A DNA stretch of 64,000 nt from Rubrivivax sp. (GCA_021300575.1 JAJTDM010000011.1:38465-102464), one strand, 5' to 3'. Counted from the first letter of the stretch, positions 36,687 to 52,407 are shown. Numbers and translations are program-made. Notes: generated by a model from the sequence alone, not told the origin.

Positions 36687-38783
36687 GTGGTGGCCGTGCG
36701 CATGGTGCTGCGTCTGCGCCGCGGCAAGTTCGGCAGCCGGCTGCTGCTGAAGCTGGCGGGCATCTTTGCCATCGTCGGCCTGCTGCCCGGCCTGGTCATT
36801 TACACCGTGAGCTGGCAGTTCGCCTCGCGCAGCATCGAGAGCTGGTTCGACGTGCGCGTGGCCGGTGCGCTGGATGCGGGCCTGGCCCTGGGCCGCAGCA
36901 CGCTGGAGTCCTTGCAGTCGGACCTGGCGGCCAAGGCGGAAGTGGCGGCCGCGCGCCTGGCCGAACCCCCGGGCGTCATCGGCCCGCTGGCATTGGAGCG
37001 CCTGCGGGAGCAGTTCGGTGCGCTGGAGGTGTCGGTCGTGGCGTCCTCGGGTCAGCCGCTGGTGAGTGCGGTCGCGTCCGGGACCGGTGCTGCGGGTGCC
37101 GCGGGTGCGGGCGGCCTGGGCAGCCGGGAGCGGCCGCCGCCTGCCCTGCTGCGCCAAGCGCGCAGCGGCGGGCCGGCGAGTCAGATCGAGGGGCTGGAGG
37201 ATGACGCCGCGGGCGCCCGCATCCGCCTGCTGGTGCCGGTACCCAACAACGCGATCTCGCTGAATGCCGCCGAAGCGCGTTACCTGCATGTGGTGCAGCC
37301 GCTGCCCCGTGCGCTGACCAGCAACGCCCTGGCGGTGCAAGCGGCCTACAGCGAGTACCAGCAGCGCGCGCTGGCGCGGGACGCCCTGCGCCGCATGTAC
37401 ATCGGCACCCTGACGCTGGCGCTCGTGCTGGCCGTCTTCGGTGCCGTGCTGCTGGCCATCGTGCTGGGCAACCAGCTCACCCGGCCGCTCATCCTGCTGG
37501 CCGAAGGCGTGCGCGAGGTCGCCGCAGGCAACCTCTCGGCCCGCCCCGTTTTCGCCTCCAGTGACGAGCTGGGCGGCCTCACGCGGTCCTTTGCCGACAT
37601 GACGCAGCAGGTGGCCGATGCGCGCACCCAGGTGCAGCGCGGTGTGGACCAACTGGAGTCGGCCCGCACGCGGCTGCAGACCATCCTGGACAACCTGAGC
37701 GCAGGCGTCATCCTCTTCACCCGCGAGGGCCTGATCGACACCGTCAATCCCGGTGCCACGCGCATCCTGCGCCAGCCCTTGCAGGCCTATGCCGGGCGCC
37801 CCATGCAGGAGGTGCCGGAGCTGGCCCCTTTCGCAGACGCCGTGACCCAGCGGTTTCAGAACCTGGTGGCGGGGTCTGAGCCTGGCGAGCGCGAGCAGTG
37901 GCAAGACTCCTTCGAGCTGCGTGCGTCCCAGCCCGGCGCCATCACGCTGCTGGCGCGCGGCGCCATGCTGCCCGGCGACGCCCGCTTGCTGGTCTTCGAC
38001 GACATCACCGAGGTCGTCTCGGCCCAGCGGGCGCAAGCCTGGGCCGAAGTGGCGCGCCGCCTGGCGCACGAGATCAAGAACCCCCTCACGCCCATTCAGC
38101 TGTCGGCCGAGCGCCTGCAGCACAAGCTGGCCTCCAAGCTGGAAGGCGCCGATCAGGTCATGCTGGTGCGGGGCGTGGGCGTCATCGTCGACCAGGTCGA
38201 GGCCATGAAGCAGCTGGTCAACGAGTTCCGCGATTACGCCCGACTGCCCTCCGCCCAACTGCACCCCCTGGCGCTGAACGGTCTGGCCCTGGACGTGGCC
38301 TCCCTCTACGGCCAGGCGCAGGAGCAGGGCCAGCTCACACTGAGCCTTGGCTCAGACCTGCCCGACATCCTGGGCGATGCGGCCCAGCTGCGCCAGGTGA
38401 TCCACAACCTGGTGCAGAACGCGCTGGATGCCGTGTCTTCCCGCGAGGCCCCGCAGGTGGTGCTGGCCACCGAGGCTGTGCGCGGCGAGGCCGATGGCGC
38501 CGTCACCGCCGTGCGTCTGTCGGTGGTGGACAACGGCCCGGGCTTCGACGAGCAGGTGCTGCGCCGCGCCTTCGAGCCCTACGTCACCACCAAGCCCCGG
38601 GGCACGGGCCTGGGTCTGGCCGTGGTCAAGAAGATAGCTGACGAGCACCGAGCCCGCGTCCGCTTGCGCAACCGTCATGAGGGTGATGTGCCCGACGCCC
38701 CCGTGACAGGCGCCCGCGTTTCGATATCATTTTTCGCATTGGCACAATCTCCCGCGAGGGATGCGCCCCTGCGCCCCACCTGA
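36687..38783 (+). CDS. NtrY-like PAS/HAMP sensor histidine kinase (N-terminus apparently truncated)
   Basis: RRGKFGSRLLLKLAGIFAIVGLLPGLVIY TM segment, a second TM plus HAMP, a PAS region, H-box HEIKNPLTPIQLSAERL, and the ATPase G-boxes DNGPGF and GTGLGLAVV. The frame opens only at 36645, so the roughly 60-70 residue N-terminal TM region seen in homologues (from memory) has no coding space. Confidence 0.8.
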   Translation: MVAVRMVLRLRRGKFGSRLLLKLAGIFAIVGLLPGLVIYTVSWQFASRSIESWFDVRVAGALDAGLALGRSTLESLQSDLAAKAEVAAARLAEPPGVIGPLALERLREQFGALEVSVVASSGQPLVSAVASGTGAAGAAGAGGLGSRERPPPALLRQARSGGPASQIEGLEDDAAGARIRLLVPVPNNAISLNAAEARYLHVVQPLPRALTSNALAVQAAYSEYQQRALARDALRRMYIGTLTLALVLAVFGAVLLAIVLGNQLTRPLILLAEGVREVAAGNLSARPVFASSDELGGLTRSFADMTQQVADARTQVQRGVDQLESARTRLQTILDNLSAGVILFTREGLIDTVNPGATRILRQPLQAYAGRPMQEVPELAPFADAVTQRFQNLVAGSEPGEREQWQDSFELRASQPGAITLLARGAMLPGDARLLVFDDITEVVSAQRAQAWAEVARRLAHEIKNPLTPIQLSAERLQHKLASKLEGADQVMLVRGVGVIVDQVEAMKQLVNEFRDYARLPSAQLHPLALNGLALDVASLYGQAQEQGQLTLSLGSDLPDILGDAAQLRQVIHNLVQNALDAVSSREAPQVVLATEAVRGEADGAVTAVRLSVVDNGPGFDEQVLRRAFEPYVTTKPRGTGLGLAVVKKIADEHRARVRLRNRHEGDVPDAPVTGARVSISFFALAQSPARDAPLRPT

Positions 38784-38805
38784 GCCCTCGATTCCCGCAA
38801 CGCCC

Positions 38806-39567
38806 ATGTCAACGATTCTTGTAGTGGACGACGAACTCGGCATCCGGGCGCTCCTGTCGGAGATCCTGGCCGACGAGGGCCACACCGTGGAACTGGCCGA
38901 GAACGCCAGCCAGGCGCGAGCCGCGCGTGAGCGTTCGCGCCCCGACCTGGTGCTGCTGGACATCTGGATGCCTGACGTGGATGGCATCACCCTGCTCAAG
39001 GAGTGGGGCAGCGCCGGGCTGCTGACCATGCCCGTCATCATGATGAGCGGCCACGGAACCATCGACACAGCCACCGAGGCCTCGCGCTACGGGGCCTCGG
39101 CGTTCCTGGAAAAGCCCATCACGCTGCAGAAGCTGCTGAAAGCCGTGGACCAGGCCCTGTCGCGCTCCAGCGGGCCACGTGCGCCCGCTGCCTCGGGTGA
39201 GTTGGCCAACCACGCGAACGGTCCGGCCGCAGGGCAGGGCGCCGCAGGCCTTGCACGAACGGCCGCGTCCACCCCGGCCGCCGGCGCGGGCGTGCCGGCG
39301 GCCGCTGCGGGCGGCCCGATGGCGGGCGTGGTGACGATGGTGACCTCGGCCTTGCCGCCGCCCCGCCAGGCCTTCGACCTGGACCGCCCCCTGCGCGAGG
39401 CGCGCGACGCCTTCGAGAAAAGCTACTTCGAGTTCCACCTCGCCAACGAAGGCGGCTCCATGACCCGGGTGGCCGACAAGACGGGCCTAGAGCGAACCCA
39501 TCTGTACCGCAAGCTCAAGCAACTGGGCGTGGACCTCACCCGCACCAAGCGCAACGGCCAAGGCTGA
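38806..39567 (+). CDS. NtrX-like response regulator (receiver plus Fis-type HTH, no AAA+ domain)
   Basis: MSTILVVDDELGIRALL...LVLLDIWMPDVDG receiver domain and C-terminal HTH GSMTRVADKTGLERTHLYRKLKQLG. Confidence 0.8.
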   Translation: MSTILVVDDELGIRALLSEILADEGHTVELAENASQARAARERSRPDLVLLDIWMPDVDGITLLKEWGSAGLLTMPVIMMSGHGTIDTATEASRYGASAFLEKPITLQKLLKAVDQALSRSSGPRAPAASGELANHANGPAAGQGAAGLARTAASTPAAGAGVPAAAAGGPMAGVVTMVTSALPPPRQAFDLDRPLREARDAFEKSYFEFHLANEGGSMTRVADKTGLERTHLYRKLKQLGVDLTRTKRNGQG

Positions 39568-39594
39568 AGCCTCAGGCTATACTTTCAAGCTTAC

Positions 39595-39670
39595 GGCCAA
39601 GTAGCTCAGTTGGTAGAGCAGCGGATTGAAAATCCGCGTGTCGGTGGTTCGATTCCGCCCTTGGCCACCA
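39595..39670 (+). tRNA. tRNA-Phe (anticodon GAA)
   Basis: 76-nt cloverleaf read by hand: acceptor ggccaag/cttggcc, D-arm gctc-agttggt-agagc, anticodon stem gcgga/tccgc with loop ttGAAaa, T-arm ggtgg-ttcgatt-ccgcc, encoded CCA. Confidence 0.95.
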
Positions 39671-39680
39671 CCATTCGGAA

Positions 39681-39713
39681 CCGTCGTCTTACTTGTTGAG
39701 ACGGCGGTTTTTT
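39681..39713 (+). terminator. rho-independent terminator after tRNA-Phe
   Basis: Stem ccgtcgtct / agacggcgg followed by a T6 run. Confidence 0.7.
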
Positions 39714-39805
39714 CATTGTGGGAGTGGCGTTTTGAACGTCACTCACGCTGCTACCACTTTGCCCCCACGCTGCTGCCGCTGACAGCACAGGGCGAGGGCT
39801 GCTGA

Positions 39806-41089
39806 ATGACAGCCGCACTCAAGCAGCAAGACACTGACCGACACGCGGATAGCAACTCCGCTGCTGTGCTGTCGCTGGCCCACCAACGCAGGCTCACTGC
39901 CCTTCATTCAGCACCGCCCCACAGCGTGTCACTCCGCGACGGGGAACTGGTTGTCTATCGCCGCAACCGCAGTCTTCTCTACCAATGCCGCTACAAGTTG
40001 GCCGACGGCATTTGGGTGAGACAGACAACAGGCAAGGCCGCACTGGAACACGCCGTTGTCCGTGCCTGCGACTTGTATGACGAGGCCAGGTATAGACAAC
40101 GGCTGGGCCTCGCACACCGCACACACTCGTTCGCACACATTGCTGCTGTCTGCGTTGGTGAGTTGCGGCAACAGATAGACGTGAAGGGCAAGAAGACGGC
40201 ACTGAACGACTATGTGTCCTGTATTGAACGCTACTTCGTGCCCTACTTCGGCGAGAGGCAACTGGAGACGCTGACACGCAAGGACGTGGTGGAGTTTGAG
40301 GTGTGGCGGGACAGGCAAATGCTGCGTCGCCCAAAGACCAGCACGCTCAACAACTTCAGTTCTGCTTGGAACCGCGTCATTGCCACTGCGGTTCAACACG
40401 GCTATGTCAGCGAACGAGTGCCTGTGCCGCACCTCACCAGCAAGGGCGAGAAGGGCACGACAAGGCCTGCGTTCAGCGAGGACGAGGTGACAAAGTTGCT
40501 GGCCTTTATGGAGGAGTGGCAGCACAAGGGCAGGCTCGCAGTGGAACGCGAGATACGGCCCCTGCTACGCGACTACGTGGAGTTGCTGCTGCTGACGGGA
40601 ATGCGGCACGGCACGGAAGCAATGAACATCCGCTGGAACCACATTGAGTGGCACACGAAGGACGGTGTTCGCTACCTACGCATTTGGGTGAGCGGCAAGA
40701 CAGGCGGCAGGTGGCTCATAGCCAAGCACAGGGCGGTGGAAGTGCTCCAGCGACTACACGCAAGGCAGAAGGACATTGCGGCTATGTCGCTTGAAACGTT
40801 GTTCGCAGAGAGGGTGCCGCACCTGCTGTTCAGGTTCAGCGACGGCTACCAACCGCAGAGTCTGGTTGGCACCTTCCGCAAGTTGATGCGGGACAGCGGA
40901 CTGCTGAAGGACGGAGAAGGGAAAACCCGAACACTCTATTCACTTCGCCACACATATGCTACGTTGGAATTGTTGCGAGCGGGCACTGACATTCACACGC
41001 TGGCAAGACAAATGGGCAACTCTGCGGCAATGTTGGAGCGTCACTACAGCAAATTGACTGCGACTATGGCTGCGGAGAAGTTGGCTTGA
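39806..41089 (+). CDS. int: tyrosine-type site-specific integrase
   Basis: 427 aa. Catalytic-domain motifs LLLLTGMRHGTEA (Arg), YSLRHTYATLELL (His-x-x-Arg) and LERHYSK (Tyr). Adjacent to the tRNA attachment site. Confidence 0.9.
   Translation: MTAALKQQDTDRHADSNSAAVLSLAHQRRLTALHSAPPHSVSLRDGELVVYRRNRSLLYQCRYKLADGIWVRQTTGKAALEHAVVRACDLYDEARYRQRLGLAHRTHSFAHIAAVCVGELRQQIDVKGKKTALNDYVSCIERYFVPYFGERQLETLTRKDVVEFEVWRDRQMLRRPKTSTLNNFSSAWNRVIATAVQHGYVSERVPVPHLTSKGEKGTTRPAFSEDEVTKLLAFMEEWQHKGRLAVEREIRPLLRDYVELLLLTGMRHGTEAMNIRWNHIEWHTKDGVRYLRIWVSGKTGGRWLIAKHRAVEVLQRLHARQKDIAAMSLETLFAERVPHLLFRFSDGYQPQSLVGTFRKLMRDSGLLKDGEGKTRTLYSLRHTYATLELLRAGTDIHTLARQMGNSAAMLERHYSKLTATMAAEKLA
40936..41089 (+). repeat. 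direct repeat copy 1: the 3' end of int
   Basis: tattcacttcgccacacata...caagacaaatgggcaactctg.ggcaatgttggagcgtcactac... aligns by eye with 41873-42028, with scattered substitutions. Confidence 0.85.
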
Positions 41090-41399
41090 GGCCGTGGGGT
41101 CAAGGCGTGAGGCACTACTGTTCACGCGAGCCAGATGCTTCTGTTCAGCTACAGCCACTAGCCGCAGAGTCTTGTTGTTGCCCCTTAAACGCTACTTTAT
41201 ACGTAGTGGGTTGATCAATTACCGGAAGGTTCAGGGGAGACCCGAAACCTCTATTCAGGTCGACGCAACTATGCTGTGAGCGCACCAAAGTCTGACAAAG
41301 ATGACAGGCATGTACTTGCGTTGCAAATTGCCATTCTTATGCTGTGTTGGAGGACTATGGTAGTAAGTTAACGGCAGCTATGGCGGCGGAAGGAGTGTA

Positions 41400-41573
41400 A
41401 TGAATGAGTCCGGATTATTAATGAGAATAATGAAAGTTTTCGAAGGCTTAATGAAGGGTTTTGTTGCATTTGGTTTAAGTTTTATCATTGTCGCCGCCTG
41501 TTTGCTTGGGATATTTATATTGATTGCTATCTCTATCTTGGGAGATATCCTCAAAAAGGGTATCATTTTTTAA
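41400..41573 (+). CDS. small hydrophobic protein (57 aa)
   Basis: Below the ORF-track size cut-off and translated by hand: AGGAG at 41391, ATG at 41400, MNESGLLMRIMKVFEGLMKGFVAFGLSFIIVAACLLGIFILIAISILGDILKKGIIF, stop at 41571-41573. Predicted TM segment(s). Confidence 0.5.
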   Translation: MNESGLLMRIMKVFEGLMKGFVAFGLSFIIVAACLLGIFILIAISILGDILKKGIIF

Positions 41574-41588
41574 ACACTAGGAGATTCT

Positions 41589-41849
41589 ATGAATTCAATA
41601 ATGGCCCGTCTTTTCGTTTTTATCAACGAAGTATTGTCGTTGATTGTAGTTGCTGCCAATTTCGTGATAGGCTTGGGCTTAATGGGGGAGTTTGGTATTT
41701 GGGGTGTGCTTTATCTGTTTCTGTCCACGTTGTTATTGATAATCATATTTGGTTTTGCTGCCCTATACATTGAGTCTCACAAAGCCATAATACAGATTCG
41801 TGATATATTGATGACGCACCAGACGAATTCTGATAGTGGTATCAAATAG
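41589..41849 (+). CDS. small two-TM membrane protein (86 aa)
   Basis: AGGAG RBS at 41578-41582. Two hydrophobic stretches (LSLIVVAANFVIGLGLM; VLYLFLSTLLLIIIFGFAALY). Confidence 0.55.
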   Translation: MNSIMARLFVFINEVLSLIVVAANFVIGLGLMGEFGIWGVLYLFLSTLLLIIIFGFAALYIESHKAIIQIRDILMTHQTNSDSGIK

Positions 41850-41872
41850 CTGTGGGAATTTAAGTAACCAGA

Positions 41873-42028
41873 TATTCACTTCGCCACACATACGCTACGC
41901 TTGAACTGCTGCGTGCTGGAACAGACATTCATACGTTGGCAAGACAAATGGGCAACTCTGCCGCAATGTTGGAGCGTCACTACTCAAAGTTGACTGCGAC
42001 TATGGCGGCTGACAAGTTGGCTGACTGA
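41873..42028 (+). pseudogene. orphan integrase 3'-end fragment (direct repeat copy 2)
   Basis: Encodes ...SLRHTYATLELLRAGTDIHTLARQMGNSAAMLERHYSKLTATMAADKLAD*, nearly identical in protein to the int C-terminus, with no upstream integrase coding sequence. Confidence 0.8.
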
Positions 42029-42048
42029 ATATAATATATGAGGAAGAT

Positions 42049-43212
42049 ATGGATAAGAATTTTAGTATAGAGGAGTGCGTGCTCGGAAATGACGAATTTA
42101 AAATATTCCTTGCAAATAAGTATGCGATATCCAAACACCCAACTCTGGGCGAGTATATATTCAACGATAAGTTGTATTCCTCACTAAACGATGCGTTGCT
42201 TGCGGCGAGAGCGGCTTACATTGAGGGTCGTGAAGACTTTAAGGAGGCGTCAACTAATGACTCTACCCATTTATTGGAAACGCCTCGCACGAGTTCGGAG
42301 GGAGCTGGTTTTGCTATAGGACGATTCGTGGCAGAGAGACCAAAGGTTGCGGGTGCAATCGTCGCTGGAGTCTTGGCTATATTTTCTCTCTCGGCATACC
42401 AGGTCCACGTCGAAGAAGAAAGGAGGCGGGAGCAGAAAGAAAGGAGGCAGGAGCAGGCACTGGCGAACAAACTCGGATTCGACTCGATAGAAGAAATGAA
42501 GAAACTCAATTCAATGGGTTTTGCCGATAAGACCAAGTTTCTGGATGCAGAGGCAAAGAAGCTTGGTTTTTCCACCAATGCTGAGATGAAAGAATGGCTT
42601 GCCAAAGGTGCTAAGACGGGGAAGGAAAAGGAGGAACTCATTGCGAAGGCAAAGTCACTCGGGTTTGACGGGTTTGACCAAATGCAGGAACTCCAGGCGC
42701 TGGGCTTCAATACGATGGCAGAAAAGATTGCCAAAGACAAGGCGGACGAAAAACGCGAGAGGGAGGAGGCTGTAGAGAGGGAGCGGCGTGCTGAAGCTAG
42801 TAGAGTATATACAAACCAGACAGTTTTCATTCGTATCTTGCAAACCAATCTATTTGATTTGGAATTAGCAAAAGCTAGAAATAATTCTGTGGCCGAAGGG
42901 ATGATTGAGGAGCGTCTAAAAGCAAAGGAGCTGGAGATACTTGGGGCTGAAAACTACGCGCGGAACTGGGAGTGTATTGTGTGGAGAGTGTTCAACGCGG
43001 GTTGGATTCAGTGTCTGACACAACTAGGATTAACAAAACAACCACACCTCTACTATGACCTTCGGATGAAGGCGCCATTATCCGCACAGAATGCCTCATC
43101 TCTGAATGCCGGAGAAACTCTGAGGTTTTCAGGGCGACTAAAGAAGTTTTGGGGGGCGCGCCTCGGAAATCCTACGCTTGATGTGCAAGATGCGGAAATT
43201 CAAGGCAATTAG
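42049..43212 (+). CDS. hypothetical single-pass membrane protein with five LGF-x3-4-EMK-type repeats in a charged coiled region
   Basis: GAGGAAG RBS. N-terminal soluble domain, TM helix VAGAIVAGVLAIFSLSAY, and ER/K-rich region with repeats KLGFDSIEEMKK, SMGFADKTKFLD, KLGFSTNAEMKE, SLGFDGFDQMQE and ALGFNTMAEKIA. The C-terminal domain is unrecognised. Confidence 0.7.
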   Translation: MDKNFSIEECVLGNDEFKIFLANKYAISKHPTLGEYIFNDKLYSSLNDALLAARAAYIEGREDFKEASTNDSTHLLETPRTSSEGAGFAIGRFVAERPKVAGAIVAGVLAIFSLSAYQVHVEEERRREQKERRQEQALANKLGFDSIEEMKKLNSMGFADKTKFLDAEAKKLGFSTNAEMKEWLAKGAKTGKEKEELIAKAKSLGFDGFDQMQELQALGFNTMAEKIAKDKADEKREREEAVERERRAEASRVYTNQTVFIRILQTNLFDLELAKARNNSVAEGMIEERLKAKELEILGAENYARNWECIVWRVFNAGWIQCLTQLGLTKQPHLYYDLRMKAPLSAQNASSLNAGETLRFSGRLKKFWGARLGNPTLDVQDAEIQGN

Positions 43213-43326
43213 AAGCGGACTGGTGACGGCAATGTTTGCTGCTTTTGTCGCTTATCAGTTAATTAATGGCAATCATTTTGATTACAAAATGTAGATATTT
43301 TCTTTGTAAGATCATGGAGTTTAAAA

Positions 43327-43905
43327 TTGAATATTTCTAAATTAATGATCGTGGCAATATTCTGCGTCTTTTATGGATTGCAGGCTCGAGCCCAAACCAC
43401 CCCGACAGAGCGCGGATTTAAGTCGGACTCTGAAATGAAAGCCGCATACGCACGGGGATTCTTCACGGCGAAGGACTATGAACTTTATACTATTCATGGA
43501 TTCCGAAATAGAGATGAGTTTTTGAAGTATCGAAGTTCAACTATGGAGACAAAGGCGCGCATTGTTTCAAGAAACATGGCTGTAAAAGAGGGGATAGATA
43601 ACTATCGAAGATGCTCAAGAATTTACTATGGTGTGCTTCGCTTTCTTGCGGATCAGCAAAACGATTCACAATTTAATGAATTTCAGAATGCATTTGCCCC
43701 GGTGATGGAGTTGGGTGCGATACAATTCGCAAATCAAGGCGTGAGTATTGAAGATTTCAAGGCCGATGGGTTGAAGAATTCGCCTCCATTCTCCACAGTT
43801 ATCGAAGTTAAAAGATTAACAGATGGATGGGATAATTGCCGCCAGACTTTGGAGCGTTACTGGAGTATAGTCAAGTTCGACGAATGGAAACTCACCTCGC
43901 GCTAG
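43327..43905 (+). CDS. hypothetical secreted protein sharing the GF-x-EMK-type motif
   Basis: GGAG RBS 7 nt before a TTG start. Signal peptide NISKLMIVAIFCVFYGLQARA. Motifs RGFKSDSEMKA, RGFFTAKDYEL and HGFRNRDEFLK. Confidence 0.65.
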   Translation: MNISKLMIVAIFCVFYGLQARAQTTPTERGFKSDSEMKAAYARGFFTAKDYELYTIHGFRNRDEFLKYRSSTMETKARIVSRNMAVKEGIDNYRRCSRIYYGVLRFLADQQNDSQFNEFQNAFAPVMELGAIQFANQGVSIEDFKADGLKNSPPFSTVIEVKRLTDGWDNCRQTLERYWSIVKFDEWKLTSR

Positions 43906-43926
43906 TCTCTCGAAAGAGGATGTGTA

Positions 43927-44259
43927 ATGGTTAATCTCACCGGCAATTTTCCATTTTGGCGAAGCATGGTTGCGTTGATGACAGTAATGTCTTTCACCAG
44001 TGGCGCCGAAGCGCAAATATCTGAAGCAAAGTGTAATATGTGGAGAAATGTTATGCTTCAGCAAACCATGAGTTTTCGAGAACGAGGTGTTCCTGTCGGT
44101 AATGCTGAGGAGACGTACAACAGTGAAGATGATGTAAGGACTCGGGTATTTTTGAAGCGAATAGTACGTATGGTGTATGCGGAGCCGGAAAAGTCCCGGA
44201 CATATGTTGTCAACGGTGGCTTTACTCAGGACTGCATCAAGACTCACCGTGGATACTAG
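43927..44259 (+). CDS. hypothetical small secreted protein (2 Cys)
   Basis: AGAGGA RBS. Signal-peptide-like MVALMTVMSFTSGAEA. 110 aa with no recognisable family. Confidence 0.55.
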   Translation: MVNLTGNFPFWRSMVALMTVMSFTSGAEAQISEAKCNMWRNVMLQQTMSFRERGVPVGNAEETYNSEDDVRTRVFLKRIVRMVYAEPEKSRTYVVNGGFTQDCIKTHRGY

Positions 44260-44292
44260 TATCAATCTATAATTCGTTTACTGTGTAATGAC

Positions 44293-44318
44293 AAAAAGCC
44301 CGCAAGTTGCGGGCCTTT
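44293..44318. terminator. bidirectional rho-independent terminator between convergent operons
   Basis: aaaaa-GCCCGC-aagtt-GCGGGC-c-ttt, a GC stem flanked by an A-run and a T-run. Confidence 0.65.
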
Positions 44319-44335
44319 AATTGATTATCGAGTCT

Positions 44336-45043
44336 CTACCGCATCGCTGCCTTGAGTAGGCTGGCTGTGAGAACGGCGGCTTCTTCTGCCTGTCGCTTTG
44401 CTCTCTTTGCCAATCGCAGCACAGCAAAGATTACGCTGCGGAACGAGCCAGCATTACCAGCAATGGCACTGAGAAGTTGAGTATCGCTTAAAACAACCCC
44501 TTCGTCTGCGGCAATGCGGCGAGCAAGTGGCAGAAAGTCTGTGTCAGCGGCTGCGTTCATTTCCACCAACACACACCTGTCCTTCACGCCTTTGTCTAAC
44601 TGGCTAATGTTGTTGGTTGTGAGAATGAACACGGCACGAGAGCTGTTCAGCGTAGTCTTCAGTCCTCCTTGTGCTGTTTTGTTGAGTGAATCCACTTCGT
44701 CAAAAATGTAGTAGTGGTGTCTGCTTTGATTGAACGACATGACAGACAATTGACGCTTCACTAAATCCAAAATCGGAGTGCCAGTGTGTCCTTGTTGGCA
44801 ACCGAAAAACTCCGCCTCCATCCCCAATTCCTCACCCGTTTGTGCCTTCTCAATCAAGCCAGGTAGCAATTTCGCCAATGTTGTCTTCCCTGTGCCAAAT
44901 GTGCCGTAGAGAAGAATTCCTGTCTTGCCCGAAAAAGGAATTGGCAAGTCACCGCTGACAATATCTTCAATCAGCTGCTTTGAATCCTCGTTGCCAAAGA
45001 CGAACTCAGATAGCGTTTTTGGGGTGTAGTTTATAGTGTTCAT
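44336..45043 (-). CDS. clamp-loader (RFC / T4 gp44)-like AAA+ ATPase, short form
   Basis: AAGGA RBS. N-terminal YTPKTLSEFVFGNEDSKQLIE (RFC box-like), Walker A GTFGTGKTT, Walker B YYIFDEVD, sensor-1 ILTTN, and an SRC-like DRC motif. Only 235 aa. Confidence 0.85.
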   Translation of the reverse strand: MNTINYTPKTLSEFVFGNEDSKQLIEDIVSGDLPIPFSGKTGILLYGTFGTGKTTLAKLLPGLIEKAQTGEELGMEAEFFGCQQGHTGTPILDLVKRQLSVMSFNQSRHHYYIFDEVDSLNKTAQGGLKTTLNSSRAVFILTTNNISQLDKGVKDRCVLVEMNAAADTDFLPLARRIAADEGVVLSDTQLLSAIAGNAGSFRSVIFAVLRLAKRAKRQAEEAAVLTASLLKAAMR

Positions 45044-45480
45044 TTTATTGATCCTTTATTTTGTATTGATTTAGGGTACGACAATGAAGCCAGTCGCACC
45101 CTACTGTATTGATTACGCTGCAGCCTTTTGCAGCTCGCTATAGAGTGCAGTAAGCGCAGCATTCACAGCGGTACCACTGCGGGTGAGCGCTTTTATGTGA
45201 AAACTGCCATCCGCCTGCTGCTCAGCCAGTAGTACACACTCGGTCCCCACAAATTCAGCGTCAGCCAGTTCTGCGAGACGTTGCTTTGCAATGGCGAGCG
45301 TGGGAAGCGACGTCAGCGAAGACTTGACTTCCTCTGCCTTCTGCTTGGGGCTCTTGTAGGTGGCACTCCGAGAAAGCTTCACCTCTTGTATCCCGCCCTT
45401 TTGCTCAATCCATGACGACAAGGCGCCTGGGGTTACCCCCGCGTCTTGTGCAGCGCGCAGGACAATTGAATAGGTACTGA

Positions 45481-47150
45481 GTCGGCCCTGCAAAACACCG
45501 TAAGTCCTTGTTTTAATTGATATTTCAGGGTGTTTCCGGATGGTCAGAACTCTCGAGAAGATATCCAATGGCGCTCAATTCCTGAGAGTTTTGGAGCTGA
45601 AGAGATGGCCACTGACGACTTCTTCCGCGCGCGTTTGGATGGCATGGTCGATCCCCGTCACCCGCTGGTAGTTCTCGCCAGCCGCATGCCGTGGCCGCAG
45701 ATTGAGGCCGCGCTGGCGCCGGCCTTGGCACACAAGGACCGCAAGGGCCGCACGGTGGAAGGCGCCGACATGTTCGGCCCGACGCTGTCGGTGGCCGGCG
45801 CGGGCGTGAGTGCTGCGGGCCGGCCGCGTTTGCCCATTCGGCTGATGGTCTCGCTGCTGTACCTCAAGCACGCCTTCAACGAGAGTGACGAGTCGCTCGT
45901 GCAGCGCTGGAGCGAGAACGTCGTCTGGCAACTCTTCTCCGGGCTGGAGTACTACTCGACCAAGCTTCCGTGCGACCCTGCGCAGATCAGCCGCTTTCGT
46001 AAGATCCTGGGTGAGGCCGGCGTGGAGCAACTGCTCAAGACCACCATCGAGACGGCCGTGGCCATCAAGGCGGTGAACAAGGCCGAGTTCGAGCGCGTGA
46101 TCGTGGACACCACGGTGCAGGAGAAGGCGATTGCCCACCCGACCGACTCGCGGCTGCTGGATGTGGCGCGCCGGCTTGTCGTGCGCCACGCGCAGCGCGC
46201 GGGCATCGCGCTGAAGATGACCTACGAGCGCGAGGGCAAGACGCTGCGCCGGCGCGCCGGCGGCTACGCCCACGCCAAGCAGTTCAAGCGGCTGAAGACC
46301 GTGGTCAAGCGCCAGCGCACCATCCTGGGGGTGCTGATCCGCGAGGTCACCCGCAAGATGGAGCAGATGACCACCTTGGCTGCTGACATCAAGACCAAGT
46401 TGATGACCTGGCTGGAGCGCGCCGAGCGCATCCGGACTCAGAAGACCAAGGACAAGAACAAGCTGTACGCGATGCACGCCCCTGAGGCGGAGTGCATCGG
46501 TAAAGGCAAGGCCCGCAAGCCCTACGAGTTCGGCGTCAAGGCCAGCATCGCCGTCACGCACCGCAAAGGGTTGGTGGTGGGCGCCAGGACCTTCCCCGGC
46601 AACCCGTACGACGGGCACACCATGGCCGCCCAGATCGAGCAGACCAGCACGCTGCTGGAGAACATCGGCGTCAAGCCCACCACGGCTGTGGTGGACATGG
46701 GCTACCGCGGCGTCGACGAGGATGTTCCAGCCGTGCAGGTCATCCACCGCGGCAAGGCCAAGAGGCTCACCGCCCAACAAAAGACCTGGCTGAGACGACG
46801 TCAGGCCGTTGAGCCGACCATCGGTCATCTCAAGGCCGACCACCGGATGGACCGCTGCTGGTTGAAGGGGACTGAAGGCGACGCGCTGCACGCGGTGCTG
46901 TGCGCGGCGGGGTTCAACATCCGCTGGTTGATGCGCGCCATCGCCGAGCAGGCGGCCAAGGCCGCCAAGGCGTTTGTTTTTGTCCTCTTCAGGCTGTGGT
47001 CGTGGCTGCAGATGGCGCTGGGCGGGCGCTATGCGACCATCAGACAAGCAATAAGCCCCGAAGACCAGTTCGAGCGGCGCCATGGAACGCCCGCCTTGGG
47101 TCGCTGTCAACGTATGGTCGGGGCGGCTGGGTGAATTTTGCAGGGCCGAC
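45481..47150 (+). mobile_element. IS element (IS5/IS1182-superfamily-like), 1670 bp, with terminal IRs and a 6-bp target duplication
   Basis: IRL gtcggccctgcaaaacacc (45481-) matches the reverse complement of the right end, gtcggccctgcaaaattcacc (-47150). TACTGA is duplicated at 45475-45480 and 47151-47156. The GC-rich body contrasts with the AT-rich surroundings. Confidence 0.85.
45605..47134 (+). CDS. DDE transposase of the IS
   Basis: 509 aa from MATDDFFRARLDGMVDP. DDE-region blocks VIVDTTVQEKAIAHPTDSRLL, AVVDMGYRG and EPTIGHLKADHRMDRCWLKG. The stop codon lies inside the right IR. Confidence 0.85.
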   Translation: MATDDFFRARLDGMVDPRHPLVVLASRMPWPQIEAALAPALAHKDRKGRTVEGADMFGPTLSVAGAGVSAAGRPRLPIRLMVSLLYLKHAFNESDESLVQRWSENVVWQLFSGLEYYSTKLPCDPAQISRFRKILGEAGVEQLLKTTIETAVAIKAVNKAEFERVIVDTTVQEKAIAHPTDSRLLDVARRLVVRHAQRAGIALKMTYEREGKTLRRRAGGYAHAKQFKRLKTVVKRQRTILGVLIREVTRKMEQMTTLAADIKTKLMTWLERAERIRTQKTKDKNKLYAMHAPEAECIGKGKARKPYEFGVKASIAVTHRKGLVVGARTFPGNPYDGHTMAAQIEQTSTLLENIGVKPTTAVVDMGYRGVDEDVPAVQVIHRGKAKRLTAQQKTWLRRRQAVEPTIGHLKADHRMDRCWLKGTEGDALHAVLCAAGFNIRWLMRAIAEQAAKAAKAFVFVLFRLWSWLQMALGGRYATIRQAISPEDQFERRHGTPALGRCQRMVGAAG

Positions 47151-47561
47151 TACTGACACGTCGACGGTCGACATTGCCAAATACAGCTTTGACAACACGA
47201 GTTAGCATAGGGCTCTTCTTGCTGACACGATAACCACGAAGCTCAAGAAAATCATTAAGCTCATCGTTTCTTGTTTTGCAAAATGCCGACGAATCATTCA
47301 TCTGTCCATAATCAAGACAATCTGCCAATACGGCATATAGATGCTGATTGCTAGTACGATGGGATAAACTGCTTTCCCACTGCACCCTTCTTTCTTCCAA
47401 TCGCTGTAGCAGCGATAGTGAACTGGATACGCCGGACAAACTTTGCGGATTCGCATCCACATCCTGTTGTGTATTCTCGGTGCTCACTGCCAAGCAAATG
47501 TTCCCTAATTCATCACCATCATTAGTGTCTGAGTTAGTTGTGGTCGTAACTTTCATCTCTC

Positions 47562-47620
47562 TATTCATATATATCTCCTCTAATAAATGAATATCAACGG
47601 TTTGTTGATATATATGAATA
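47562..47620 (-). promoter_or_regulatory. perfect 14-bp inverted repeat enclosing the RBS and overlapping the start codon of the IS-split gene
   Basis: tattcatatatatc (47562-47575) and gatatatatgaata (47607-47620), spaced 31 nt apart. On the mRNA the 3' arm contains the AUG and the loop contains the AGGAG. Confidence 0.5.
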
Positions 47621-47746
47621 TACATCAGTGGAATTTATTATGCAACTGAGTATATATTTTAGGGAGTAAATATGAACGCAGAATCAGAAAATGTATGATG
47701 AATGAGAACAGATGAGGATAAGTGGAAAAGTCGTTCAAAACGACAC

Positions 47747-48319
47747 TCAAACCAACTCAACTGCACGCCTCTTCATATCGTCATTGACAGTTATGTAGCG
47801 CTGCGTGGTGGCGATGCTTCGATGTCCGGCCAACTCAGCTAGCACGAACACTGAGATCCCCTGGCTCGACAGTGAAGTGAGAAAGGTCTTGCGTCCTGAG
47901 TGCGAACTCGCCCCTCGTACCCCAGCTCCTTTGTATAGCCAATAAAAGTGCTGCGCGAGGGTATTCGGGGTGAACGCACGTCGCGGACCACGCAGGGTGG
48001 GGAAAAGAGGCTGTGTCTCGTCATACCAAGTTCTGCTTTCCACCCACTCAGCCAACTCAGCATGTAGCCTGCTATTGACGTAGATGGTGCGTGCGTGCCC
48101 GTGCTTGGCACGGTCAGCAGTGAGCGCGATCTCGGTGAACACCCTGCCATCGGAGTTACGCACATCTCCTACCCTCAAACCTGCTACTTCTCCAACACGC
48201 ATCCCCGCCATCGCGGTGAGCAAGAACATGACGCGATTGCGCTGTGCATAGGCTTGTGTTGAGATGTACTCAAGCACTCGCTGTATTTCTGCTGCTGTAA
48301 GTGATTTTGCTGCTGCCAT
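47747..48319 (-). CDS. small (190 aa) catalytic-domain-only tyrosine recombinase, FimB/FimE-sized
   Basis: GGAGAG RBS and start MAAAKSLTAAEIQRVL. Motifs AMAGMRVGEV (Arg), SHSGRKTF (His-x-x-Arg) and GHRSIATTQRYI (His, Tyr). Confidence 0.85.
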   Translation of the reverse strand: MAAAKSLTAAEIQRVLEYISTQAYAQRNRVMFLLTAMAGMRVGEVAGLRVGDVRNSDGRVFTEIALTADRAKHGHARTIYVNSRLHAELAEWVESRTWYDETQPLFPTLRGPRRAFTPNTLAQHFYWLYKGAGVRGASSHSGRKTFLTSLSSQGISVFVLAELAGHRSIATTQRYITVNDDMKRRAVELV

Positions 48320-48809
48320 CGCGCTCTCCAAATAAGTGGTGTGCGAACAAGTGTGTGTTCTTTGGTACAGGTCGGACAAGAGAGTCCAGGTAATTCGGCG
48401 GGTTTCTCAGTAATCATTGAGAGTCAATGACATAGGTATTCGACCAAACACTTTGCATGTTCTCTTTGTTCTCTGTATTTAGCGCTGAAGATGAGCGAAG
48501 TCAAAGAAATAAAGCGCTACTTGAAGAAATAAGCCCTACAAGCTGGGCAACTGAGGTTCAAGCTACCCAAGCATTCGCCACGCTGTAAAAAACGTTTGTG
48601 CGCGTGATTTGGCGTTGAGCTATGCTTTATGCAGTACCGATCTGTACGCCAAAGAGCTAATTTTTCGCTGTACTATTTCTCAAAGGTGCGTAGATCTCGA
48701 CCTCTGGTGCTTTGCTCTATGTGTGTAATGAATACTTCAAAGTGAAACGACAACACTATGGCACTAGCCCATGTATTGATGGCTAGATGAAATGAAGACT
48801 CACTATCGA

Positions 48810-49343
48810 CTAACTTAAGTCCATCAACAGTGCTTGGTGTGGAATCTGTGTGTTCTCGAAATCCCAAGTATCAGCATTTCCGCGCTCGGCTTCCTTTGTT
48901 ATGTAGCTGAGCCATTTAATGTTGTTTTCAGGCGTTGCTTGCTCTATCCAAAGTCTTTCTCCACTCAAACCTGCCTTCCGTACCCAACAGTGCTCAAACA
49001 CCTTTCTCAACTCAATCATGTCTATTCCCGGCGGGATGTTGCCTATAGCAAAATTGAAGTGAATTGTGTTCTGGGAACTGTATGACTCAAAAGCACCTTC
49101 TATGGTTGTCAGTAGTAGAGGCGAGTACAGGCTTGGCTTTCTTAATGCCTTTGCCTGATATAGAGACTGACTGAATGTGCGTCTAAAATGGCGACATTTC
49201 TTCTGTGCCTCTGTACGCATACTCATAATTTGCCTGTCAGTGGCCTTGTATGTATGAAATGTCGTGTGTGCGACTGCCCAGTGCGTTATGTGTTTACTGT
49301 AACCGTTAAGGAATGATCTGATGTGATGTGCTGTAATCTTCAT
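48810..49343 (-). CDS. hypothetical protein (177 aa)
   Basis: Longest ORF in this AT-rich stretch, divergent from the 49496 gene. No clear SD sequence and no recognisable motif. Confidence 0.45.
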   Translation of the reverse strand: MKITAHHIRSFLNGYSKHITHWAVAHTTFHTYKATDRQIMSMRTEAQKKCRHFRRTFSQSLYQAKALRKPSLYSPLLLTTIEGAFESYSSQNTIHFNFAIGNIPPGIDMIELRKVFEHCWVRKAGLSGERLWIEQATPENNIKWLSYITKEAERGNADTWDFENTQIPHQALLMDLS

Positions 49344-49495
49344 ACATCTATTTAGCTAAGACCAAACAATACCATAAAAAAATATGTGAATTATGTGGAT
49401 TTGCCGAATGGGTGATGACTTGAAATCGGTTGCTCTCATCTTGCCGATGAACATAAACTGCACTCATTGCGATACTAATTTAGGAGAAAGTAGCA

Positions 49496-49936
49496 ATGGG
49501 AACACTAAGCACGCTGAAACTGACTGCTGTTCAACGACCTCAGCAACTGAGCGCCGTCCAACTGCGCCGAAACAAGTTGCTTCGACGGCTGGACGAGCAG
49601 ATGAAGCTGGCATCTGCACAGGAAGAGGGAAAGCAATTCGCTCCTCTTCGGCTGCGCACTGTGACTGACCCGGCAACGGGTAGCCGCCGCACTGTTGAGT
49701 CCAGCAAACGTGTAAAGGCTTGGTGGTTCAAACAAGAGAGCGGCAAGTTCGCACTGAGCATCCGTTACGGAGCAAAGGTGCTGGAGTTGGCAAAGGGCAA
49801 GTATGCTGTAGAGGTTGCTTCGCCGAAAGATTTGATTTCCACGCTGGAGATTGTCAAGTCTGCGGTGGAGGCAGGTGAACTGGACGGCGCAATCGAGCAT
49901 GCCGCAGGGCGCCTGCGTCAAGGGTTCAAGAAGTGA
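49496..49936 (+). CDS. conserved hypothetical protein (146 aa)
   Basis: AGGAG RBS. MGTLSTLKLTAVQRPQQLS...KAWWFKQESGKFALSIRYGAKVLEL...AGELDGAIEHAAGRLRQGFKK resembles a family seen on mobile elements of proteobacteria (possibly DUF6641, from memory only). Confidence 0.6.
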   Translation: MGTLSTLKLTAVQRPQQLSAVQLRRNKLLRRLDEQMKLASAQEEGKQFAPLRLRTVTDPATGSRRTVESSKRVKAWWFKQESGKFALSIRYGAKVLELAKGKYAVEVASPKDLISTLEIVKSAVEAGELDGAIEHAAGRLRQGFKK

Positions 49937-50030
49937 TAAGTCCGATGTTTGTCCTGAACAGCCTGGGGCGTATCAAATCGATGTGTGGTTAGCACAATTC
50001 AGACTTCGACTAATTCATGCTAAATACTTG

Positions 50031-50381
50031 ATGAAGAAGTATTTGGGACAGTTGCGTATTGGTGGGAAGATAGTGAGAACTGTTGTGTACGCAGAAAATG
50101 CAACACATGCTCGCCTTATTCTTCAATATCAATTTGGAATAGCAAGTGTTGTTGGAAATCCCTGGTTGGTAGGGGAGGAGTCTGAGGTGCAAGCCTTGTG
50201 CGATAGTTCCGCGAAACCAACTTCTCCGAAGCCTCCCATGTCTATCCCACAGTTGCGTATCAATTCGCTCAAGCAAGGCATAAAGCGTGGGAAAGAGCAA
50301 TTACGGGCAGAGCGGGATAGGCAAAAGCGACAGCGCGAGGTGATCCGTAAAAGTAATAAGAGATCGGCGTCTATTTTCTGA
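50031..50381 (+). CDS. hypothetical protein (116 aa) with a basic C-terminus
   Basis: Internal ATG (MKKYLGQLRIGGKIVRTVVYAENATHARLILQ...) within ORF 49851..50381. The upstream part of that ORF overlaps the preceding gene. Confidence 0.45.
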   Translation: MKKYLGQLRIGGKIVRTVVYAENATHARLILQYQFGIASVVGNPWLVGEESEVQALCDSSAKPTSPKPPMSIPQLRINSLKQGIKRGKEQLRAERDRQKRQREVIRKSNKRSASIF

Positions 50382-50957
50382 GTATTCCTGGTGTTTGGCA
50401 GTCGGAATGAACTTGCGTGTTAAGAAAAAGCACGATTTTTGAACAGTAAATGATCGGAAATTGCTATATCAATGCGCGTCAGATGTAAAGGGGATGACCG
50501 GCATAGCTGAAAATGTGAACTAGCGATCTGGCTGTTTTCGCTACGCTGTAATGCTGTGACAGGCATCTGACATTCTTTCCAAACTGACCACTACCAAATC
50601 TAAATTCCGGCCTGTGTGTCTTGCGACAAAATGAGAAGTCGCATTAATAAATAAGAATCGAACGAGGTGAGCTGTGAACAAAGTCCGGGATGCGTACGAT
50701 GCCTGAATACGCTGCTGCGTTTAGATAGGCTGCGGACGCTAGATAAATCGGAATAAGCCAGTATAAGACTACTTTATTCTAGGAAGAAATAGTGTCGTTT
50801 TAGGAGACAGTCGAAAGGGCAATGGGATATGCTTCAATACATTATTAGACGGTGTGAAATTGTTGCTTCGCGTTCCTCGCGTACAAAATACGCACACCAA
50901 CTTTCTACGACGCTGTATCAGCTTGAAAATCAAGTTAGAAATTGGTCTAGCAAGCGT

Positions 50958-51002
50958 TTGAAAATCCGCGTGTCGGTGGTTCGATTCCGCCCTTGGCCAC
51001 CA
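50958..51002 (+). repeat. attR: exact 45-bp copy of the tRNA-Phe 3' half
   Basis: ttgaaaatccgcgtgtcggtggttcgattccgcccttggccacca is identical to 39626-39670. Confidence 0.9.
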
Positions 51003-51025
51003 TTCCAAGGCGCCAACCGTACGCG

Positions 51026-52249
51026 ATGACCTGCCGGTTCGTTGCCACCCTTGCCCTTGTTGCGACGCTGCTGGCCGGCTGCACTACCTACCCGGTCGGT
51101 AACCGTCAGGCGGTAGGCGATTGCCCGGCCTGTGCCGCCGGCACAGTCGAACTGCCGCTGCTGCAGGGGGCGCTCTCGTATCCGATCGTGGAGGTCGCGA
51201 TCGACGGCCGGCCCGGATACCGCTTCCTGTTTGACACCGGCGCCATGGGCACGGTGATCTTCCGTCACCCCCGAACAGCCGACCTGGCGCTGTCCCCCCG
51301 TGGCGAGATCGCAGTTGGCGGCCTGGGCGATGGTGCGCGCCCGGCTGCACAGGTCGCGCCCGGGGTCGCGCTTCAACTTGGACCATTGACGCTGCGGGAC
51401 ATGACGGTACTGGTGCTGCCAGTTGATCGGCTGGCGCTGTTCGGATCGCCAGATCTGGTGTTCATCGACGGCATCATCGGCAACGACCTGTGGACCCGCT
51501 TCGGCGTGGAGGTCGATGCCGCTGCCGGGCGAATGCGCCTGCACCGCCTCGGCACTACGGATCTGGGGGCAGGTGCGCGTAGCGCCGCGCTCACAGTTCG
51601 GCACGACCACCTGTTCGTCCCGGTCCGGGTCACGCTCGATGCCAGCCGCGATCCGGTCGCCGTCGACCTGCTGCTCGACAGCGGCGACGCCGGCGCGCTG
51701 TATCTCGTGACCGACCCGGTGCGGGGACTCGTGCCGCCGGAAGGCGCAGTGACAATCGAGGGGCCCGGGATACAGGGCCAGAGCCGCGCGATGGCCGCAC
51801 GCTCAACGGCGGTCGAGGTTGCCGACGTCCGGTGGCTGAACGTCCCGACTGGCTTTGGCCCGGAGGGTTCCGGGAGCAGGGAGCTTGGTGTCGGCCTCAT
51901 CGGAGTCGGGCTGCTGTCGCGGACCCGCTGGGCGGTGGACGTCGGGCAGTCGCGGCTGTGGCTGGCACCCGGCGACGCAAGCGAGCGTCGCTTCGAGGAC
52001 GGCTCCTTCGGGCTGGCCACCGCCGTGGTGGCGCGCCGGTTGCTGGCCCTGCTCGTGCAGGCGCAGAGCCCGGCGGCGAAGGCAGGTCTGCAGGTCGGTG
52101 ACGAGTTGATCTCGCTCGACGGTTCTTCGATCACGGGCAGCCAGCAGGCCGCCGTCGAAGCGGCGCTGCAGACTCGCCGCACAGCGACGCTGTGTTGGCG
52201 CCGGGTTGACGATGTGCGCTGCGGGACCTTGACGCGAGCGGCGCCCTGA
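51026..52249 (+). CDS. lipoprotein with tandem retropepsin-like aspartic protease lobes and a C-terminal PDZ domain
   Basis: Lipobox LLAGC. Two D-T/S-G sites (FLFDTGAMGTVIF; LLLDSGDAGALYL). C-terminal PDZ-like LLVQAQSPAAKAGLQVGDELISLDG. Confidence 0.7.
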   Translation: MTCRFVATLALVATLLAGCTTYPVGNRQAVGDCPACAAGTVELPLLQGALSYPIVEVAIDGRPGYRFLFDTGAMGTVIFRHPRTADLALSPRGEIAVGGLGDGARPAAQVAPGVALQLGPLTLRDMTVLVLPVDRLALFGSPDLVFIDGIIGNDLWTRFGVEVDAAAGRMRLHRLGTTDLGAGARSAALTVRHDHLFVPVRVTLDASRDPVAVDLLLDSGDAGALYLVTDPVRGLVPPEGAVTIEGPGIQGQSRAMAARSTAVEVADVRWLNVPTGFGPEGSGSRELGVGLIGVGLLSRTRWAVDVGQSRLWLAPGDASERRFEDGSFGLATAVVARRLLALLVQAQSPAAKAGLQVGDELISLDGSSITGSQQAAVEAALQTRRTATLCWRRVDDVRCGTLTRAAP

Positions 52250-52407
52250 AGGCCGCCGGGCTCGTCGGCAAAGGCGGCGCCGCCGCCCGATGGGTGCGGC
52301 GGCACGAGGCCTGCTTCATCGCCTACAACCCTATTGCGCTTGCTCGCGCGAACCTGTACGCCGAATCCCGCCGAGTGGCGCATCAGCGTTCGGTTTTCGC
52401 GTTCAGT

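Follow-up and report, generated by a model that had tools for sequence, protein, structure and literature searches.

Three consecutive genes in a 64,000-nucleotide (nt) stretch of Rubrivivax sp. DNA (GCA_021300575.1 JAJTDM010000011.1:38465-102464; this whole stretch is referred to as the window, and positions are counted from its first letter) very probably are real exported cargo of an integrative island, and the first two of their products share a true 14-residue repeat, the GF repeat. The genes, which we call g1, g2 and g3, are the following open reading frames (ORFs):

42049 to 43212, plus strand: g1, ATG start, 387 amino acids (aa)
43327 to 43905, plus strand: g2, TTG start, 192 aa
43927 to 44259, plus strand: g3, ATG start, 110 aa

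An initial annotation, generated from the sequence of the window alone, had described the trio as co-oriented AT-rich genes with ribosome-binding sites (RBSs) that encode an island-borne envelope system. Its coordinates and lengths were exact, and Shine-Dalgarno-like sequences lie 4-7 nt upstream of the start codons: AGGAAG is 4 nt 5′ of the ATG of g1, GGAG is 7 nt 5′ of the TTG of g2 and conserved in a second allele of the island, and AGAGGA is 7 nt 5′ of the ATG of g3. The assignment to the envelope was also borne out, as all three products are envelope-targeted by a transmembrane segment (g1) or a signal peptide (g2 and g3). The three low-GC ORFs are located directly behind an integrase gene, in the cargo slot of the island, and the GC content of the trio region is 0.43-0.47 compared with 0.65-0.72 for the flanking chromosome.

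The motif that the initial annotation had noted in the membrane-anchored g1 and the soluble g2 proved to be a true homologous repeat of 14 residues, which occurs five times in g1 and three times in g2. The motif count of g1 or g2 was reached by none of 20,000 composition-preserving shuffles. An independent hidden Markov model (HMM), built only from the units of two remote metagenomic proteins, P0012 and P0013, recognized all five g1 units and all three g2 units, with scores of 25.3 bits for g1 and 14.0 bits for g2 compared with 7.3 and 7.0 bits for the best of 1,000 shuffles. When the whole window was scanned with this HMM in six frames, only g1 (E = 4e-7) and g2 (E = 3e-3) matched. P0012 is a 203-aa lipoprotein (lipobox LLTAC/G) that has three units at a 14-residue period and both cysteines of g2. 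P0013, encoded on a short contig with no recognizable mobile context, has 321 aa, an N-terminal transmembrane segment, ~11 units and a two-Cys C-terminal domain, which is the same overall plan as that of g1. As judged from sequence, the GF repeat is a real, homologous and very rare module. It occurs in anchored, lipoprotein and soluble periplasmic proteins, no Pfam-A model matched its unit, a new family could be curated for it, and it offers a tractable target for structural work. In all of these proteins, the repeat follows a signal peptide, a lipobox or a transmembrane anchor and would therefore be extracytoplasmic; we infer that g1 is oriented N-in/C-out, with its repeats and distal domain in the periplasm.

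The g1 protein consists, in order, of an N-terminal domain (aa 1-97), a transmembrane segment (98-121), an ER/K helix, the five GF repeats, a second ER/K helix and a two-Cys C-terminal domain of ~130 residues (approximately residues 257-387), here called the head. The repeat region is encoded at:

42463 to 42744, plus strand: GF-repeat region of g1, aa 139-232, with units at G143, G157, G173, G205 and G219 (repeat HMM)

Hydropathy and repeat positions agreed with the earlier description of a 387-aa single-pass protein with five repeats in an ER/K-rich context and a C-terminal domain of no recognized family. The only hydrophobic segment was at residues 98-121 (Kyte-Doolittle, 19-residue window, 1.78), and the ER/K-rich stretches at residues 121-140 and 228-256 flank the GF array. 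The exact g1 protein was found on 21 metagenome or metagenome-assembled genome (MAG) contigs. For g1, a word-indexed search of 5.8 billion proteins, in which only the 8,000 word-richest candidates were scored, yielded a single relative, and none was found among plasmids and phages with tblastn.

Signal-peptide features and three GF units likewise fitted the description of the second product as a 192-aa secreted protein with three motif copies. The signal peptide of g2 (aa 1-22) has an n-region, an h-region and the cleavage sequence ARA/Q without Cys at position +1, which corresponds to a signal peptidase I-type site. The GF units, with glycines at positions 30, 44 and 58 (aa 26-69), follow an exact 14-residue period. 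In an AlphaFold2 model of g2 (predicted local distance difference test (pLDDT) score 77.5), they are helices of eight or nine residues (34-42, 48-56 and 62-69; pLDDT 85-91), such that a unit is a ~9-residue helix joined to a 5-residue x-G-F-x-S/T linker; in this model, the S/T-x-x-E/D of each unit would provide the helix N-cap. Residues 73-179 form four helices with Cys96 and Cys171. P0012 is a full-length remote homologue of g2 (E = 5.5e-8, 27% identity) in which the three repeats, both cysteines and the length are kept. The word-indexed search recovered essentially g2 alone, a complete HMMER search with g2 through 1.84 billion cluster representatives yielded P0012 and P0013 as the only new relatives, and a g2 profile found none in viral contigs.

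The third product, g3, was correctly described as a 110-aa secreted two-Cys protein. It has a signal peptide (aa 1-29, AEA/Q) followed by a helical domain (AlphaFold2 model, pLDDT 82.7) that contains Cys36, Cys103, a NSEDDVRTRVFLK motif and the C-terminal sequence CIKTHRGY. Eight homologues with 40-63% identity share 20 invariant columns, and Cys36 and Cys103 are kept in every full-length homologue. A profile search matched g3 to phrog_2315 (E = 6.8e-7, 30.4 bits, residues 16-90 on profile positions 8-83 of 109), and Foldseek comparison of the g3 model revealed a resemblance to small phage proteins (TM-score ~0.6, probability 0.99, E only 0.13-0.25), including two annotated as "lipoprotein" from Burkholderia phage BcepSauron and Stenotrophomonas phage BUCT548. 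The profile match extends over most of the phrog_2315 model, and all of these proteins are small, exported and helical. Set against this likeness are the high Foldseek E-values and the failure to find a g3 relative by tblastn among 50,697 phage genomes or by profile scan among 2.9 million viral contigs. A profile scan of 185,579 species genomes returned one MAG locus only.

The statement that no family is recognizable for any of the three proteins held up, with the qualification that g3 alone matched phrog_2315, a family of small phage proteins with no assigned function. Nothing scored above threshold for g1, g2 or g3 in Pfam, NCBIfam or PADLOC, and isolated domains of g1, P0013 and the g1-related protein P0001 were also negative (Pfam, E ≤ 10). 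In PHROGs, nothing other than the g3 match was above threshold. PDB sequence searches with g1, a g2 profile and a g3 profile gave nothing at E < 0.3, and Foldseek searches of the PDB with the g2 and g3 models gave nothing at E < 1. The top matches for the g1 repeat region (Ish1, IF2_N and YfbU) were weak, at 12-17 bits compared with cut-offs of 25-27.

We then compared the window with a second allele of the island (L001, together with a 5-kb JGI contig), in which the order integrase-g1′-g2′-g3′-AAA+ is the same. The two alleles are 91-96% identical outside one cassette in g1 and ~96% identical in g2 and g3. All three frames are intact in both, and RBSs and start codons are conserved. The cassette is located at:

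42741 to 43178, plus strand: swapped cassette encoding the distal C-terminal domain of g1 (blastn breakpoints)

In the window the cassette comprises 437 bp, which are replaced by a non-homologous 382 bp in L001; the two sequences become homologous again 34 nt before the g1 stop codon and remain so, at 95.7% identity, through g2 and g3. P0001 is 90% identical to g1 over the N-terminal 63% only. Cysteine pairs are present in every extracytoplasmic domain, with two cysteines in the window g1 head and four in the L001 head, which carries another RRFKSVSDMKEY-type motif. A 21-bp tandem duplication in g1 (42416-42456, AAGAAAGGAGGCGGGAGCAG twice) makes the first ER/K stretch seven residues longer than in L001, a slip-type polymorphism in spacer length. 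In its conserved part, g1 differs between the alleles by 15 synonymous and 8 non-synonymous substitutions (ratio of non-synonymous to synonymous polymorphism, pN/pS, 0.15), a pattern that indicates purifying selection on this part. For g2, 11 of 12 substitutions are non-synonymous (1 synonymous), and g3 has 1 synonymous and 4 non-synonymous substitutions.

Ten further metagenome or MAG contigs matched the window allele at 100% identity over 41999-44330 and had the same chromosomal site wherever their flanks were covered, and the island allele was detected in at least 20 lake or freshwater runs. The proposal that the three genes form one conserved system was not supported by the comparison with other loci. 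All three genes were found together in two near-identical alleles of a single island lineage and nowhere else. No g1- or g2-like neighbors were found in seven remote contexts of g3 homologues (L004, L007 and L010-L014), and no g1- or g3-like genes at the P0012 locus, where the neighbors are Sel1, TPR and, by eye, LPP20-type lipoproteins. Because the genes do not co-occur elsewhere, the test that the initial annotation had itself named as able to refute it, the idea of a three-part system is weakened, and the g1-g2 repeat link survives. We consider it somewhat probable that g3 is an independent passenger of this island family and not an obligate third subunit.

The surroundings of the g3 homologues are themselves recurrent. 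A DUF6641 homologue adjoins or is near the g3 homologue in four of the seven remote loci (L004, L010, L013 and L014; with one ORF between in L010). L013 shares with the window island its integrase (43% identity), a small XerC/D-like recombinase (45%), DUF6641 (51%) and the g3 homologue, and a cytosine methyltransferase gene with a convergent ORF, a putative restriction partner, is located beside its integrase. In two other loci (L007 8992-11362 and L012 1031-3835), the g3 homologues are part of low-GC clusters of small exported proteins that include a TM2-domain protein, a protein with a transmembrane segment and a zinc ribbon, two-Cys lipoproteins and, by eye, an LPP20-like lipoprotein; these clusters suggest a recurring "small periplasmic protein" type of cargo on these islands. 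A two-Cys lipoprotein next to three g3 homologues was considered as a diverged g2, which would have made a conserved g2-g3 pair, and was rejected (BLASTP E = 3.1, hhalign probability 0.2).

Several known systems resemble parts of the locus. In architecture only, g1 is like the TolA/TonB tethers, with an N-proximal single transmembrane segment, a long charged helical spacer and a C-terminal head. It differs from them in that no TolA/TonB C-terminal domain was detected (Pfam), there are no TolQR/ExbBD-like genes among the island ORFs, and g1 has a cytoplasmic domain of 97 residues, absent from TolA and TonB, and the 14-residue GF repeat within its spacer. To our knowledge, this repeat does not occur in TolA/TonB spacers. 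The Ltp superinfection-exclusion lipoproteins (PF07553) of temperate phages are extracytoplasmic, are made of all-helical repeats and are encoded next to the integrase on an integrated element. Their repeats have a G-F-S/T-x-x-E-like turn in a three-helix domain of ~50 residues, and they block phage DNA entry at the envelope. However, PF07553 did not match g1, g2, P0012 or P0013, even at E ≤ 10 on isolated repeat regions; the GF unit is 14 residues with one helix, and g2 has no lipobox, although its remote homologue P0012 has one. HeH/SAP/LEM motifs, represented by Ish1 (PF10281), similarly have short helices, a Gly-hydrophobic turn and an S/T-x-x-E cap. These motifs are cytoplasmic or nuclear nucleic-acid binders, whereas the GF repeats follow a signal peptide, lipobox or transmembrane anchor and are thus extracytoplasmic, and with 12.2-14.9 bits compared with a cut-off of 26.6 g1 is not an Ish1 member. 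Finally, the swapping of the g1 C-terminal domain as a cassette in an otherwise 91-96% identical locus recalls polymorphic toxin loci, but no toxin or trafficking domain was detected, Pfam at E ≤ 10 matched nothing on either head, and g1 has an internal transmembrane anchor and is not secreted. The corresponding candidate role of g2 and g3 as immunity genes matched to the variable g1 head was rejected: neither varies together with the head, as identity across the swap is 95.7%, and they are therefore not cognate immunity genes.

Taken as a whole, the locus can be read, tentatively and at somewhat less than an even chance, as lineage-restricted envelope cargo in which a g1 tether and soluble periplasmic proteins take part in exclusion or protection. 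In such a scheme, g1 would serve as a tether in the inner membrane, with the variable head held away from the membrane by rigid charged helices and the GF stalk. Through its GF repeats, g2 might either stack on the stalk of g1 or bind an envelope partner that the two proteins have in common, and g3 would be an independent passenger of the island family. The accessory function might protect the host of the island by blocking the entry of phages or mobile elements or by neutralizing a toxin that acts in the periplasm, with the swappable g1 head giving specificity. The protective or exclusion role taken by itself is possible but doubtful; it is suggested because of the integrase-adjacent slot, which holds restriction-modification-like genes in a related island, the head swapping, the non-synonymous bias and the weak phage link of g3. 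The most specific version, in which the GF unit is an extracytoplasmic helical repeat not described before, g1 and g2 form a new periplasmic tether-adaptor module and the exchangeable head sets the specificity of an island barrier against phages or mobile elements, is a long shot. If the protective reading is true, the locus would be an envelope-acting, defense-like module that current catalogues of defense systems have missed, with a built-in swappable specificity domain and on a small island that is widespread in lake metagenomes.

In addition to the narrow distribution of the trio, a number of points weigh against this protective reading. PADLOC-DB v2 contained no family that matched g1, g2 or g3 at E ≤ 1, and the neighboring AAA+ protein had only weak generic P-loop matches there. 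The comparison with the methyltransferase and putative restriction genes of L013 is guilt by association from a single locus. g2 and g3 have so few substitutions that neutrality explains them as well as diversifying selection does, and g2 could simply be under relaxed constraint. No transcripts of the trio sequence were found in the RNA runs checked. For g1, the positive-inside signal is weak (net charge ~+2 on the N-side compared with ~0 on the C-side), and homologues of its C-terminal domain may have been missed because of the limit of 8,000 scored candidates in the word-indexed search.

Among the alternatives, an ordinary structural or adhesive envelope accessory, with GF repeats that bind peptidoglycan or an outer-membrane component and no role in conflict, is unlikely. 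A transmembrane segment, a charged helical spacer and a globular head resemble periplasm-spanning tethers, P0012 is encoded among Sel1, TPR and LPP20-type-looking lipoproteins, and the anchored P0013 has 11 units with no recognizable mobile context on its short contig. This alternative has to be reconciled with three facts: Pfam detected no known peptidoglycan-binding or adhesin domain, the genes are horizontally acquired low-GC cargo of one lineage only, and head swapping together with a non-synonymous bias is unusual for housekeeping scaffolds.

It is quite unlikely that g2 and g3, with the small secreted neighbors of g3 homologues, are orphan periplasmic immunity proteins that have accumulated on a recombinase-bearing island and act against periplasm-acting toxins of other bacteria, such as those of the type VI secretion system or colicin-like ones, and that g1 is an anchored protein unrelated to them. 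These proteins are indeed small, exported, disulfide-capable, family-less and fast-diverging, g3 homologues are always found among other small secreted proteins or lipoproteins, and the island has a second, XerC/D-like recombinase. However, no toxin gene or remnant is nearby, Foldseek found no match to any solved immunity protein, g2 and g3 do not co-vary with the swapped g1 head, and the repeat common to g1 and g2 would be left unexplained.

A further possibility is that the trio comprises decaying or functionless hitch-hikers, kept by chance on a clonal island, with g2 and g3 already neutral. The ratios of synonymous to non-synonymous substitutions (1 to 11 in g2 and 1 to 4 in g3) are consistent with no constraint, one backbone gene of the island is already disrupted by an insertion sequence (IS), and the RNA result could be read in the same way. 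The window allele, being 100% identical in every sample, is uninformative on constraint. We nevertheless regard this explanation as very improbable: the frames are intact in both alleles, RBSs and start codons are conserved between them, pN/pS is 0.15 in the N-terminal part of g1, the repeats, cysteines and length of g2 are kept at 27% identity in P0012, and the g3 family is strongly conserved at 40-63% identity.

We give very little credence to g1 as an anti-sigma/ToxR-type transducer whose head would sense a periplasmic signal for its cytoplasmic domain to relay, with g2 and g3 as periplasmic modulators, in control of island excision or replication, for despite its arrangement of cytoplasmic domain, transmembrane segment and periplasmic domain, the purifying selection on its N-terminal part and the location of the locus, which adjoins the integrase gene and is convergent with the AAA+ and 278-aa backbone genes, residues 1-97 of g1 contain no helix-turn-helix, zf-HC2 or other recognizable domain, no sigma-factor or regulator gene is adjacent, and P0012 and P0013 have no such cytoplasmic domain.

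To return to the trio as exported island cargo, orphan exported proteins are common cargo of mobile islands. What is new here is the 14-residue GF repeat and the cassette-like g1 head; otherwise the locus is a well-delimited set of orphan exported proteins.

Candidate expression signals border the three genes:

42009 to 42037, plus strand: sigma-70-like promoter match, CTGACA-17-TAATAT, directly upstream of g1 (consensus match only)
44298 to 44314, no strand assigned: GC-rich hairpin of a bidirectional intrinsic terminator, with g3 on one side and the convergent AAA+ gene on the other

The shared terminator that had been proposed for the trio is present as a hairpin after g3, but it is also bidirectional, and it is not the only such structure: a weaker hairpin with a T-run follows g1 (43227-43241). 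The hairpin at 44298-44314 is the better terminator on the minus strand (z = -3.4, UUUUU tail), and on the plus strand it folds less well and has a weaker tail. Because of the hairpin and T-run after g1, this gene may be partly separate from the g2-g3 pair, in which the gap is only 21 nt. An antisense ORF (42216-42848, minus strand, 210 aa) opposite the repeat and ER/K region of g1 would encode a Ser/Phe-rich, low-complexity product and most likely is no gene but a consequence of the GAA/GAG/AAG richness of the sense strand.

The island that carries these genes stands out in the window as a low-GC block at ~41-51 kb (0.43-0.48) within a high-GC chromosome (0.64-0.73); the host is a freshwater bacterium of 68% GC. 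Its ends are marked by:

39595 to 39670, plus strand: tRNA-Phe (GAA), identified with ARAGORN; its 3′ part, 39610-39670, is attL
50942 to 51002, plus strand: attR, a partial copy of the tRNA-Phe 3′ end, seen as a direct repeat at a GC step; right island boundary

The two ends form a direct repeat (39610-39670 and 50942-51002) of which the last 46 nt are identical. The low-GC block is an integrative island of ~11.3 kb at tRNA-Phe, because a tRNA-Phe gene and an integrase gene are located at its start and a copy of the tRNA 3′ end at its far boundary. Insertion at a tRNA 3′ end with a far direct repeat, an adjoining integrase and deviant GC are features of tRNA-integrated islands, and the initial annotation of the trio as island-borne is upheld by the attL/attR pair and the integrase. 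A literature search on DUF6641 and on comparable tRNA-Phe islands found nothing relevant. Between the left end and g1 we identified:

39806 to 41089, plus strand: ORF for a divergent tyrosine integrase, 427 aa, with the C-terminal motif LRHTYAT...HYSKL read from the translation
41087 to 41872, plus strand: insert of ~790 bp, absent from allele L001 (blastn of the window against L001)
41400 to 41573, plus strand: RBS-preceded ORF for a small membrane protein, 57 aa, inside the insert
41589 to 41849, plus strand: RBS-preceded ORF for a small membrane protein, 86 aa, inside the insert
41873 to 42022, plus strand: duplicated integrase 3′-end remnant, 150 bp, 87% identical to 40937-41086 (direct repeat, blastn)

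The integrase had only weak Pfam matches (Phage_int_M and SAM_3) and has 43% identity with its counterpart in the related island L013. In L001, the integrase gene ends 20 nt before g1, whereas in the window the ~790-bp insert and the 150-bp remnant lie between them. The duplication of the integrase end together with the insert looks like recombination between two related islands or the gain of a cassette at the integrase end.

Downstream of the trio, the backbone of the island contains:

44336 to 45043, minus strand: clamp-loader-like AAA+ ATPase, 235 aa (Pfam AAA; phrog_168, E = 1e-23)
45480 to 47151, plus strand: IS element with 16-nt perfect terminal inverted repeats and a DDE_Tnp_1/DUF772 transposase (45530-47134; Pfam)
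47747 to 48379, minus strand: second, XerC/D-like tyrosine recombinase, 210 aa (PHROGs, NCBIfam)
49496 to 49936, plus strand: DUF6641 gene of the island backbone (Pfam, E = 1.5e-14; phrog_31551, E = 4.6e-23; tblastn)

The AAA+ gene is convergent with the trio and adjoins it in both alleles, and its NCBIfam matches to RFC/DnaX were all under the cut-off. The IS element splits the 278-aa backbone gene into two fragments (45113-45568 and 47107-47625) and was found at the identical site in every metagenome contig reaching that position; the gene is intact in the L001-type contig. The presence of an AAA+ ATPase and a XerC/D-like recombinase suggests a replicating or satellite-like integrative element.

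Two further observations bear on the mobility of the island. In one lake metagenome (run X1, 38500-52500), the assembler depth was 15-16.5 over the island compared with 8.3-9.1 over the flanks, a ~2-fold difference that was not clearly seen in the other three runs; it could reflect extra copies or an extrachromosomal form. In addition, the sequence at 39665-39755, just past tRNA-Phe, is repeated with 90% identity at 52408-52498, 12.7 kb downstream and beyond attR, and a joint from 52486 to 39766 was present in contigs of three metagenomes (runs X2, X4 and X9). This joint may mean that a larger element of 12.7 kb exists in circular or tandem form, or else just that the left junction varies between strains, and the region at 52.4-62 kb (GC 0.63) may be a second, tandem element.

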